NCBI GenBank assembly: GCA_022710725.1
Contig: JAKLGK010000006.1
Span: 257,605-321,604, forward strand
Source of the DNA: Verrucomicrobiota bacterium
GTDB taxonomy: Bacteria; Verrucomicrobiota; Kiritimatiellia; CAIQIC01; JAGNIJ01
DNA length: 64,000 nucleotides
Direction of reading: 5' to 3'
Below are positions 15,707-18,503 of this stretch, piece after piece (the stretch's first letter is position 1; each line of letters opens with the position of its first letter). The notes under the pieces were generated by a model. That model did not search any database. It saw only the letters and a program-made list of their open reading frames with translations, and was not told where the DNA came from. The position numbers were made by a program, and so were the translations under genes.

Positions 15707-16789
15707 TCATTCCGGGGTCAGGGGGGCGGGCTCGGCAACCGGCTCGCCGTGTCCGGCCAGCCTGTCCGCCTCGTCCTGCTTGACCGCGGTCACATCGTTC
15801 ATGAAGGCCGACAGGATGCGCCACTGCTCCTCCGGAGACCGGCTGGCGATTGCCGGCAGGTATTCGGGATAGATCAGCTTTTCGGCCAGCAGGTACTTCA
15901 GGATCGCCTCCGCGGCGATGCGGTGCCCGATCTCGTTCGGGTGGGCATCCACCCGCGGGATGGCTTGCAGCCGTTCCGACGGCAGCCCCTTGTAGACGGG
16001 GAGCAAATCCAGATACGGTATTCCGGCGGCATCGAGTTCCTCGTGGACCTGCTCATGGATCCAGTCGAACGGATAATCATCGATGTGGCTAAGGAGCGGA
16101 AAGACCACGGCCACCATCTTGATGTTGTTCCGGCGCGTGGTCTCGGAGAAATCCTTGAGCGCCTTGGTGAAAAGCTTCCAGCCGCCGTACTCCTTGTCGA
16201 ACAGCTTGCGGTTCATTTCCAGGTAGCCGCGGCGGGCGCGGGCATCCTCCAGTTTCTGGTATACAAGCGTGGCCAGGCGCGACCAGCCCAGCGAACGAGC
16301 GAACCAGCGGGAGGGTTGATGGGGCAGGGCATCCATGCGCCATCGCGTCAGTTCCTCCTTGCGCCGGGGGTCCTCGGTATCGTTCAGGCAGATGCCGAGG
16401 ATCAGCAGTTCCGGCTTCCATGCGACGGCTTCCTCCAGGAATTTCAACTCGCCGAAGGTGCACATGCCGCCCCGCGCCCAGACACGGACCTCGGCGGGCC
16501 GTTGACCGTCGTTGAGGTTCAGGAGGCGCTCGAGCCGCGCCCCGTAGGCATCCTGGGGCTGGCTTCCGGCGCCCACGGTGATGGAGTCGCCCAGCACGGC
16601 GATGCGCAGCGCGTTCGTCGCGCCGCGGCTCCACGGGTGCATCCTGGTCTCGCCGTCGTAAAAGGAAACGGGGGGGCGATCATGACGCAGTTGCTGGTCG
16701 GGCGCCACGCGGTAGTAGGCGCGCAGGCCCAGTTCGCAGAAGGCCAAGATCATCAATAACAGAATTCCCGAGAACACGATCTTTTTCAC
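15707..16789 (-). CDS. SGNH/GDSL-family hydrolase with an N-terminal membrane anchor (copy 2, paralog of 14577-15656).
   Basis: IAVLGDSITVGAGS and VDAHPNEIGHRIAAE motifs. The protein is collinear with the neighbouring paralog over its whole length. Confidence 0.72.
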   Translation of the reverse strand: MKKIVFSGILLLMILAFCELGLRAYYRVAPDQQLRHDRPPVSFYDGETRMHPWSRGATNALRIAVLGDSITVGAGSQPQDAYGARLERLLNLNDGQRPAEVRVWARGGMCTFGELKFLEEAVAWKPELLILGICLNDTEDPRRKEELTRWRMDALPHQPSRWFARSLGWSRLATLVYQKLEDARARRGYLEMNRKLFDKEYGGWKLFTKALKDFSETTRRNNIKMVAVVFPLLSHIDDYPFDWIHEQVHEELDAAGIPYLDLLPVYKGLPSERLQAIPRVDAHPNEIGHRIAAEAILKYLLAEKLIYPEYLPAIASRSPEEQWRILSAFMNDVTAVKQDEADRLAGHGEPVAEPAPLTPE

Positions 16790-16968
16790 GCTGGTCCGTC
16801 CGGTGTGAGCATGGGGCGATTTTGTAGCGCGTCGGCGGGCATTTCACAAGAGCGAACACCCGCAACCTTGCCGATACTTCTGATGAGTCTGCGCCGGCCC
16901 GGTCCACGGATGGGCTGGAACCTCTTATGTATCCTGTAGATGAAAAGCGGAGGCCGGTCAGCATCGCC

Positions 16969-16996
16969 ATGCTCACACTTCTAGAAGTGTGAGCAT
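16969..16996. repeat. 28-bp perfect palindrome ATGCTCACACTTCTAGAAGTGTGAGCAT (copy 1 of 2).
   Basis: Read directly from the sequence. Its reverse complement is identical. It lies in a 556-bp non-coding gap upstream of the SGNH hydrolase operon. Confidence 0.9.
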
Positions 16997-17073
16997 CAGT
17001 CCGGATAGGCAATTATGAGAACTGCGTCACAAGAATTTGCATTACAGCATATAGTGTCGATTTATATTAGCAT

Positions 17074-17093
17074 CACACTTCTAGAAGTGTGAG
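17074..17093. repeat. 20-bp perfect palindrome TCACACTTCTAGAAGTGTGA (copy 2), sharing a 23-bp identical core with copy 1.
   Basis: Read directly from the sequence. It is about 100 bp from copy 1, and the intervening segment is unusually AT-rich for this genome. Confidence 0.9.
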
Positions 17094-17345
17094 CACAAGT
17101 TTACTGACGTTTTTTTACAGGAACGATCCTCACTGGAGACCGAGCCGTGCCATCGCCGCCTGTTTCCATCCCAAAAGGAGGCCGGTCGGCATAGGCGCGA
17201 TGCGTTGGCGGCATGCCCTGTCGGATGCCGGTCCGTGACGACGTCAACGTTCCCGACGATTCCCCGACCAGTATTGGCGATCGGATCCGCGGGTGAATGC
17301 CGGGGCCGGGACTCCCGTGGGCGGCCGCCGGTCGCGACGCGCGGC

Positions 17346-18503
17346 TTAGGTCGCTTTCCCGCCGGCGAGATCCTGGAACACGGTCTCGTACCGCGCCGAA
17401 ATGACCTCCCACGAGAACTGGTCGCGCGCCCGCTGCCGGCCGGCTTCGCCCAGGCGCCGGCGCTCGGTGTCGTTCCGGAGAAGAGCCGCCACCGCAGCCC
17501 GCATGGCCTCGGCATCATCCGGCTCCACCAACCGGCCCGTGACACCGTCCTCCACGGCCTCCAGGATTCCGCCGACACGCGTGGCGACGGACGGCAACCC
17601 CGCCAGGGCCGCCTCGAGGAACACGATCCCGAAGCCCTCCACGTCTCCCGGGATGTCCCGGGCCGGCAGTGCGAAGACCCTTGCCTCACGGTACAGGGCC
17701 GCCACTTCCTCGTCGCGGAGCCGGCCGGCGAGATGCACGTGGCGGGCCAGCCCCAGCTCCTGCACGCGCCGCGCGATCAGGTCGCGCCTCCGCTCATGGT
17801 GCACAAGGGAATGATGAGCGTCGTCCCCGACCACGACGTACAACACGTCGGAAAATTCCCGGACCAGCGGGGGCATCACCTGCTCCACGAACTCGAGGAC
17901 CCCCTTGCGCCGGATGAGCCGACCGACGGTCATCAGCACGCGGCGCCCGGCCACGAGGTCCGACAATTCTTTCGGCAGCGGCGGCGGGGAGACGTCGGCG
18001 GGCGGCACGAGGACGCCAGGCGGAACGACAACGATCCGCTCCGGCCGCTGCCCGGCCGCGATCAGCAGGTCGCGCGTCCGCCCGCTGTTCGCGCACAGCC
18101 GGTCGGCCCGGCCGAACAGCCAGCGGACGGCGCGGGTGTACAACCATCCGGGGTAGAGGATGTCGCTGCCGTGCGCCAGCACGACCAGCGGCCGGCGGAA
18201 CAGCCGCGAGAGCATCCATCCCGCCGGCGCGGACACGACGCTCGAGCATGCGATCACGTCCGGCCGTTCCCCGCGGCAGAGCGAAAAACCCCGGGCAAGG
18301 GAAAACAAGACATAGGCTTTCAGACCCGGCCGCGCCGCGCGCCAGGTGTCCGGTTCCGGCGGTGCGTCCTTCGCATGGGCCGTGACCACGCGGACGGCGT
18401 GGCCCCTCGCCCGCAATCCGCGGACGAGATGTTCGGCGACGTACTCGATCCCGCCCGTGACCGGCGGGTAGTTCCAGGTGAGCATCAGGATGCGCAGGCC
18501 CAT
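17346..18503 (-). CDS. Family 1 (GT4-type) glycosyltransferase.
   Basis: N-terminus MGLRILMLTWNYPPVTGGIEYV and C-terminal GFGIVFLEAALAGLPSVAT...E motifs typical of GT4. Its start abuts the stop of the upstream GT-C gene. Confidence 0.8.
   Translation of the reverse strand: MGLRILMLTWNYPPVTGGIEYVAEHLVRGLRARGHAVRVVTAHAKDAPPEPDTWRAARPGLKAYVLFSLARGFSLCRGERPDVIACSSVVSAPAGWMLSRLFRRPLVVLAHGSDILYPGWLYTRAVRWLFGRADRLCANSGRTRDLLIAAGQRPERIVVVPPGVLVPPADVSPPPLPKELSDLVAGRRVLMTVGRLIRRKGVLEFVEQVMPPLVREFSDVLYVVVGDDAHHSLVHHERRRDLIARRVQELGLARHVHLAGRLRDEEVAALYREARVFALPARDIPGDVEGFGIVFLEAALAGLPSVATRVGGILEAVEDGVTGRLVEPDDAEAMRAAVAALLRNDTERRRLGEAGRQRARDQFSWEVISARYETVFQDLAGGKAT

Follow-up and report, generated by a model that had tools for sequence, protein, structure and literature searches.

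To understand why a GC-rich genome carries two copies of one palindrome in a single intergenic gap, we analysed a 64-kb stretch of DNA from an uncultured Kiritimatiellia bacterium (contig JAKLGK010000006.1; the whole stretch is referred to below as the window), in which the gap at positions 16790-17345 precedes an operon headed by an SGNH hydrolase gene. The initial annotation of the window, made from the sequence without database searches, described this gap as 556 bp of non-coding, locally AT-rich DNA, which is borne out by its composition (GC content of 0.39-0.49 at 16950-17149, compared with approximately 0.65-0.75 in the flanking genes), and suggested that the palindromes are paired operators for a dimeric transcription factor, possibly with DNA looping. 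Our analysis supports the suggestion of paired operators: the sites and their spacing are conserved in a related species, and the predicted promoter of a candidate regulator contains the same palindrome. The two palindromes, designated O1 and O2, are most likely bound by this regulator, a protein of ~188 amino acids with two ArsR-type domains in tandem that is encoded elsewhere in the same genome, since the same type of palindrome adjoins the gene for this protein in nine out of nine lineages. The feature itself is real, non-random and functionally constrained.

O1 has the sequence ATGCTCACACTTCTAGAAGTGTGAGCAT and is a perfect palindrome over 28 bp at 16969-16996, exactly as first described. 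O2 (17073-17095) consists of a 20-bp palindromic core, TCACACTTCTAGAAGTGTGA, at 17073-17092, followed by GCA, and its interior-facing arm is degenerate. The two sites have 23 nt in common, as had been reported, although the second copy begins one position earlier than the 17074-17096 originally assigned to it. Because the core is palindromic, O1 and O2 are both direct repeats of each other (16973-16995 against 17073-17095) and inverted repeats of each other (16970-16992 against 17073-17095, with 80 nt between the arms), and their start-to-start distance is exactly 100 bp. O1 is proximal to the SGNH operon, O2 is distal, and the AT-rich spacer between them (16997-17072, GC content of approximately 0.4) contains promoter-like hexamers; none of these three features is assigned to a strand. 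Chance is not an explanation of the pair, as the 20-mer core was never matched with up to three mismatches in 100 dinucleotide-preserving shuffles of the window, and at the same tolerance no further site is present elsewhere in the 64 kb, which therefore contains one locus only. A third copy of the arm, CCATGCTCACAC, overlooked in the initial annotation, is located on the minus strand at 16814-16803, 14 nt 5′ of the GTG start codon of the SGNH gene, and is retained in the related species as CCATTCTCACAT; we consider it a putative isolated operator half-site.

The related species is represented by contigs (L059, L061 and L062; L numbers designate loci) that contain a GT4 glycosyltransferase orthologue belonging to the 90%-identity cluster of the GT4 protein of the window, in the same gene order. 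The gap is strongly diverged in this relative, yet can be aligned, and both sites are present at exactly 100 bp, contrary to what would be expected of a chance palindrome confined to one genome, a possibility that had been raised at the outset. There is no change in the arms CACACTT and AAGTGTG. Between the 18-mers both species have 82 nt, which show no significant similarity in either orientation (alignment score of -2 in the same orientation, compared with a mean of -6.8 and standard deviation of 4.3 for shuffled sequences, and -13 when inverted). Since the sites and the distance between them have been kept while the interior has diverged, it is the sites and their spacing, and not what lies between them, that selection acts upon. 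At the centre of the palindrome, every site of the species represented by the window has the tetranucleotide CTAG; both loci of the relative have ATCG distally and CGAT proximally, the two sites being strict inverted repeats at 28 of 29 positions. A species-specific centre of this type is the pattern that co-evolution with a protein would give.

All known sites in this species and its relative fall in pairs exactly 100 bp apart, forming five modules. Three loci belong to this species: the SGNH gap of the window (sites at 16974 and 17074), the promoter of the regulator gene itself (L063, 3799 and 3899) and an intergenic region from which aldehyde dehydrogenase and nitrilase-family genes diverge (L034, 6723 and 6823). 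The two loci of the relative are its SGNH gap (L059, 7341 and 7441) and its regulator promoter (L065, 2380 and 2480). L034, where the 28-mer of O1 is present identically, very probably derives from the same species as the window, since its assembly (ERZ795054) also contains the regulator in an identical copy. The five interiors share a constant length and no alignable sequence. Conservation in each module is higher in the outer than in the inner arms, which gives the whole module a dyad. Other lineages have the second site just after the regulator gene, about 600-790 bp away, or have sites 34 or 44 bp apart.

At two loci, a pair of sites flanks a small gene. Its product gives Pfam matches to HTH_20, HTH_5 and TrmB, with a TrmB/IclR-like N-terminal half and an HTH_20/ArsR C-terminal half. 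Using tblastn and exact look-ups, we found a palindrome of the same family 0-25 nt 5′ of the start codon of this ~188-aa regulator in all nine lineages (L056/L047, L051, L055/L063, L038, L065, L067, L069/L070, L071 and L072), with protein identities that include 65% (L051), 39% (L055/L063) and, at the lowest, 35% (L038). Amongst these are a Verrucomicrobia contig, L067, in which the arms are altered to GTACCTCTAGAGGTAC, and a Lentisphaerae contig, L071. At L063/L055 the site that precedes the gene for the 188-aa protein (L055:1381-815, minus strand) is identical to the 28-bp sequence of O1 (TCATGCTCACACTTCTAGAAGTGTGAGCATGA) and the layout is TTGACA-4 nt-palindrome-ATG. This regulator, P0010, is encoded on contig JAMIJE010000036.1 of the metagenome-assembled genome (MAG) GCA_035913195.1, which also contains the window locus on contig JAMIJE010000022.1.

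The position of the palindrome relative to predicted promoter elements is similar in several lineages. A TTGACA or TTGACC box is located 3-6 nt 5′ of the palindrome at L063, L065, L069, L071 and L072 (TTGACA in the last). At the first four of these loci the right half of the palindrome centre contains a -10-like hexamer (TAGAAG, GATAAG, TAAAGT or CAAAGT), 16-17 nt away from the -35 box. An ATG follows after 5-7 nt and is either formed by the outer arm or abuts it. Judged from these elements, the predicted promoter of the regulator looks leaderless and wholly covered by the site, in what would be a classic layout for autorepression.

Similarity searches place both halves of the regulator in the ArsR/SmtB family. 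The NCBIfam model NF033788 (ArsR/SmtB) scores 83.9 bits against a cut-off of 55 and matches twice, and a phmmer search of PDB sequences retrieved SmtB, NolR, HlyU, CadC and BigR-like proteins, residues ~12-85 and 108-175 being matched separately. An AlphaFold2 model built with 49 homologues (pLDDT 94, pTM 0.87) contains two complete α1-α5 plus wing units packed together, and Foldseek searches with each half returned SmtB, CzrA, NolR and SqrR at a target TM of ~0.7 and no solved structure with a tandem ArsR arrangement. As modelled, the regulator is a covalently fused ArsR pseudo-dimer, with two winged-helix domains in one chain. The transcription factor proposed initially thus has an ArsR-like candidate, which is a single-chain tandem protein and not the classical dimer that was envisaged. 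Only one cysteine is invariant, in a WRTCR motif. A search with the full two-domain profile (E ≤ 1e-30) recovered 396 clusters at 50% identity, whose named members come from Verrucomicrobia, Lentisphaerae and Kiritimatiellia, and a literature search on the motif strings and on tandem ArsR proteins found no paper on either the regulator or the motif. The regulator gene is located just 3′ of uvrC, with or without a gene for an MFS transporter, in three lineages and beside an ERCC4/HhH nuclease gene in a fourth (L063, L065, L069/L070 and L051), a neighbourhood that hints at a possible link to DNA damage or stress.

The operator family has the pattern CACACTT-N4-AAGTGTG. When species-representative genomes were scanned with the 18-mer CACACTTCTAGAAGTGTG, eight loci were obtained. 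Five of these (L013, L015, L017, L019 and L020) were discounted as chance, since approximately nine random matches are expected; they lie in unrelated low-GC or Patescibacteria genomes (Saccharimonadales, Empedobacter, Amphibacillus, Desulfosporosinus and Patescibacteria), where the 18-mer forms the tip of single hairpin- or terminator-like palindromes, several of them followed by T-runs. The other three loci are in one MAG (ELA687, 62-64% GC) and have the form GCCATTCTCACACTTCTAGAAGTGTGAGAATGGC. Scanning metagenomes with TCACACYTCTAGARGTGTGA yielded 38 loci, most of them of 60-70% GC. In all fetched sequence we counted 45 distinct CACAC-N8-GTGTG sites and essentially none with any other arm spacing. 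Nearly all are intergenic, often in long gaps that contain promoters, and copy number is low, long contigs such as those of 320 kb and 133 kb having a single match each. The initial annotation took many dispersed copies as the mark of a mobile or REP element and a few copies upstream of related genes as that of a regulon; in the sequences examined here the copies are few and lie at promoter regions. The motif appears to be distinct from familiar ones. CRP/FNR sites (TGTGA-N6-TCACA) do not fit, as the arms are everted here; NrdR boxes have ACAC-N8-GTGT arms but an AT-only centre and a restriction to nrd genes; and Rex, CIRCE and LexA motifs, parS and SlmA sites do not fit either.

The symmetry of the sites often extends beyond the conserved core. 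Y/R positions covary as T..A or C..G, with only one mixed site, and the palindrome extends at least 7 bp past the core in 29% of sites, compared with 2% when arms from different sites are paired. Much of this arm symmetry is lineage-specific variation (ATGC, ATTC, TGTC, AATC); very long perfect palindromes, of up to 46 bp, remain beyond this explanation. Perfect palindromes of 42-46 bp, with outer parts that are not conserved between sites, occur at L051 (1433-1478), L057, L052, L022 and L023. Protein recognition alone would not require them, and they possibly arise from template-switch 'perfecting' of quasi-palindromes or have a structural role as cruciforms or hairpins. Two other arrangements were noted. 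TGTCACACCTCTAGAGGTGTGACA sites are present in tandem with a 34-bp period and a third degenerate copy beside an HTH_17/Sel1-like open reading frame (ORF) (L027, 507-600; L048; L050), and two different variants of the palindrome lie 44 bp apart at L018/L045 (157-235 of L018), where they may reflect paralogous regulators. The spacings of 34, 44 and 100 bp are all near integral multiples of 11.1 bp.

The sites are observed, as are their conservation, the constant distance between them and the link to the regulator gene. From these we infer binding, repression rather than activation, looping, the promoter that is used and a releasing signal as follows. The regulator probably represses its own gene, where the palindrome fills the space between the TTGACA -35 box and the start codon, and probably also controls a few other promoters, including that of the SGNH operon. 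Protein bound at both operators would interact across the AT-rich segment through a short DNA loop or wrap, which would occlude or trap the promoter by analogy with the gal, lac and deo operator pairs. A signal would then release the regulator, allowing expression of the SGNH operon, which would modify a polysaccharide.

The presumed target operon begins with the SGNH/GDSL hydrolase gene (15707-16789, minus strand; Pfam PF13472), whose GTG start codon bounds the gap, and continues downstream with a second SGNH gene and a gene for a protein of 889 amino acids. On the other side the gap is bounded by the stop codon of the upstream neighbour, which encodes the GT4 glycosyltransferase (17346-18503, minus strand). 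The surrounding genes, which include GT2, GT4, pyruvyl transferase and Mur-ligase-like genes, together form a cluster for polysaccharide biosynthesis, and the position of O1 and O2 in it points to the SGNH operon as their likely target.

Two candidate promoters would be compatible with this assignment. The minus strand of the spacer has a CATAAT hexamer at 17017-17012, which precedes O1 by 15 nt, and the plus strand has the hexamers TATAGT (17050-17055) and TATATT (17063-17068). Any of the three may have promoter activity, the plus-strand hexamers possibly giving an antisense transcript. The layout TGTAATG-N22-(T/C)ATAAT-N15-proximal operator is shared by the window and L034, where the hexamer is TATAAT, and this shared layout suggests that a promoter within the AT-rich spacer reads through the proximal operator to the downstream gene. 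An alternative candidate promoter for the SGNH gene, read directly from the sequence and from the alignment with L059, is a minus-strand block of TTGTGA-17 nt-TACAAA (16849-16821, with TACAAA at 16826-16821), which ends 7 nt before the half-site and is better conserved than any other part of the gap apart from the operators; it was not called by a consensus scan. The half-site CCATGCTCACAC (16803-16814, minus strand) sits at the predicted transcription start of this block and is conserved in L059.

Other features of the gap were also noted. An imperfect direct repeat of ~25 nt, AAAAG(C)GGAGGCCGGTC(A/G)GCAT, is present at 16942-16966, abutting O1, and at 17169-17195, ~75 nt past O2, with a weaker counterpart in the relative. 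Positions 16969-16992 of O1 can be read as a seven-codon mini-ORF (ATG CTC ACA CTT CTA GAA GTG TGA) that is identical on both strands; its product, MLTLLEV, has no Pfam match and is not conserved in the relative or in other lineages, and the reading is probably meaningless. Two longer reading frames, one of 96 codons starting from an ATG in the outer arm of O1 and one on the plus strand at 17089-17238, were rejected as coding on the same grounds, having neither a Pfam match nor conservation in the relative. A tRNA search found none.

Several observations weigh against operators bound by the tandem ArsR-like protein. The regulator gene lies outside the 64-kb window, and a consensus scan gave no convincing sigma-70 promoter directed towards the SGNH gene, both of its calls being on the opposite strand. 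The predicted regulon looks functionally mixed, with no apparent physiological theme, as it would include, besides the SGNH, nitrilase-family and aldehyde dehydrogenase genes, the unrelated housekeeping genes that adjoin sites in other lineages (ilvC, eda-murCB, holA and trmO). The recognition helices of the two domains differ, yet many sites are perfect palindromes, and binding of one chain per site does not explain why site symmetry continues past the core. Finally, the spacing of about 100 bp stands, and proves to be exact, whereas the ten helical turns first ascribed to it do not: 100 bp corresponds to 9.5 turns at 10.5 bp per turn and to 9.0 turns at 11.1 bp per turn, so that looping with the operators in phase requires ~11 bp per turn. 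A value of ~11.1 bp per turn has been reported for looping in vivo.

A more specific form of the operator model is also conceivable, although we regard it as doubtful. Each operator would be occupied by one asymmetric chain of the fused protein, always in the same orientation, and two such chains would pair across exactly 100 bp to form an obligate mini-loop, or 'repressosome'. This is hinted at by the better conservation of the outer arms, by the ATCG and CGAT centres that mirror each other at both loci of the relative and by the organisation of the module as a dyad of dyads. The module might, in addition, exploit cruciform or hairpin extrusion of the palindromes, which are unusually perfect and extend outwards. 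If the mini-loop were correct, the module would be a portable promoter-control cassette, present at every target of a regulator that is conserved in the Planctomycetes-Verrucomicrobia-Chlamydiae (PVC) group and has so far been uncharacterised.

The palindromes could instead act post-transcriptionally as hairpins in RNA or single-stranded nucleic acid, serving as an RNase III or other processing site, as a stabiliser of the 5′ untranslated region (5′-UTR), as a roadblock or as an attenuator, in which case the ribosome-binding region would be masked through an alternative pairing provided by the arm copy at 16814-16803. We consider this unlikely. Perfect, covarying palindromes with symmetry past the conserved core are in keeping with such hairpins, and the O1 arm has a 12-nt perfect complement in the segment just 5′ of the SGNH start; however, the long-range pairing is uncompensated in the relative, where the half-site has changed from G to T and O1 has no matching change. 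The RNA folding proposed in the initial annotation showed the palindrome region to be far more stable than shuffled sequences (z = -6.6), which follows trivially from the palindromes themselves, and the fold of the long 5′-UTR is no better than that of shuffles (z = -1.0). The symmetry is a property of the DNA, with almost no asymmetry of the G-U type, and the distal sites are upstream of predicted promoters and hence would not be transcribed with the gene. In addition, no terminator-like site (a GC-rich hairpin followed by a T tract) was detected between 16600 and 17500, and a search of Rfam 15 gave nothing at the gathering threshold, the best sub-threshold match (E = 0.18) being a chance similarity to a eukaryotic snoRNA model. 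A role as an RNA hairpin could coexist with protein binding at the operators as an extra layer, but is not needed.

It is still less probable that the locus is a mobile element. The initial annotation raised the alternative of a miniature insertion resembling a miniature inverted-repeat transposable element (MITE) or a repetitive extragenic palindrome (REP), with identical palindromic ends around an AT-rich segment of ~130 bp. As considered here, it would be an AT-rich insertion of ~128 bp with palindromic terminal repeats, spread by a transposase encoded elsewhere. Identical ends around an AT-rich segment in a GC-rich genome are in keeping with this, as is the dispersal of the palindrome family through many intergenic regions of related metagenomic genomes, and covarying palindromes that extend into the flanks are also seen in hairpin-forming REP elements. 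This alternative is not supported. The five modules have interiors that are unrelated in sequence, and there is no target-site duplication, as O1 is preceded by CATCGCC and O2 is followed by CAAGTTT; the only nearby direct repeat, described above, does not abut O2. At the orthologous position in the relative, the operators and their spacing are kept whereas the interior and flanks have diverged, a pattern that indicates purifying selection acting on the sites and not decay. None of the copies examined has a transposase or RAYT gene nearby, the neighbours being housekeeping genes or the regulator; copy number is one locus per 64-320 kb; and searches of viral contigs and plasmids gave no matches to the motif. 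The idea of REP-like hairpins, prompted by the dispersed and covarying palindromes, was likewise downgraded, given that the regulator gene adjoins the sites and that arm symmetry is largely lineage-specific.

Least probable of all is an invertible promoter, in which a site-specific recombinase would invert the ~80-bp AT-rich segment between the sites and so toggle the SGNH/polysaccharide operon. The arrangement invites this explanation, since O1 and O2 are mutual inverted repeats around a promoter-like segment upstream of a surface-polysaccharide operon, the asymmetric centres of the relative make its sites strict inverted repeats, and the 10-bp arm, 8-bp centre and 10-bp arm resemble the core sites of tyrosine recombinases. 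It was suggested, moreover, by contigs from three independent samples that end exactly at O1 (L001, L002, L010, L011 and L012). However, we rejected it on the evidence of nine contigs of the same species, retrieved by exact-protein look-ups, six of them covering the whole gap and three reaching across O2 and the spacer. All match the window at 100% identity and in the same orientation, which the three contigs of the relative also share, and 12 assemblies, of which raw reads were not examined, showed no inversion. The contigs end only at O1, where one MEGAHIT pair overlaps by 28 nt, equal to k-1 at k = 29, and these ends are likely to be an assembly artefact, since a 28-mer identical to its reverse complement gives rise to a branch at k = 29. 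The search for a recombinase or transposase, which covered the genes within 10 kb on either side, found none; many lineages have the same palindromes as single sites and within the regulator promoter; and 80 bp would be very short for synapsis. An assembler artefact of this kind at such operators could fragment MAGs.

The pairing of a regulator family with a DNA motif is of practical value in this group, as hardly any transcription factors are known to have been defined by experiment in Kiritimatiellia and their PVC relatives, and with the motif in hand, regulons become predictable directly from MAGs. The 100-bp module, together with a fused pseudo-dimer, would also provide a compact natural system in which to study short-loop repression. 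At the locus in the window, the SGNH operon may acylate or de-acylate an exopolysaccharide under the control of a signal.

Comparison with known systems sets the proposed operators in context. Invertons, such as those of Bacteroides capsular polysaccharide loci and fimS, likewise have inverted repeats flanking a short promoter segment ahead of a surface-polysaccharide operon, but the present locus differs from them in its single orientation across 12 assemblies, in the lack of a nearby recombinase and in having repeats that double as sites in the regulator promoter. REP/REPIN elements and MITEs are also families of short intergenic palindromes, sometimes in inverted pairs ~100 bp apart; unlike these, the palindromes described here are of low copy number, enclose no conserved interior, lack an associated RAYT or transposase gene and are associated with a gene for a winged-helix regulator. 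The closest resemblance of the protein is to the ArsR/SmtB repressors (SmtB, CzrA, CadC, NolR, HlyU, BigR/SqrR and SdpR), whose winged-helix fold and signature are found in each half and whose autoregulated members similarly have an inverted-repeat operator overlapping the predicted promoter of the regulator. It differs from them in that the two protomers are fused in one ~188-aa chain. The operators, at 24-32 bp and often perfect palindromes, are longer than those of SmtB and CzrA, which have a 12-2-12 organisation.

The arrangement of the sites is most similar to that of the gal, lac, deo and ara looping systems, in which two equivalent operators ~100 bp apart also bracket a promoter region: gal OE and OI, acting with GalR and HU, are ~114 bp apart and lac O1 and O3 are 92 bp apart. 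As in these systems, spacing is held exactly while the intervening sequence, which is AT-rich and presumably bendable, drifts. In contrast to gal and lac, one fixed 100-bp module is present at every known target in the lineage, and the protein that would form the putative loop is not a tetramer of the LacI/GalR type but, in the monomer model, has two DNA-binding domains of its own. A repressor with paired operators is thus known in kind; what is new is the fused ArsR architecture, the rigid 100-bp module formed as a dyad of dyads and an apparently uncharacterised PVC family of regulators.

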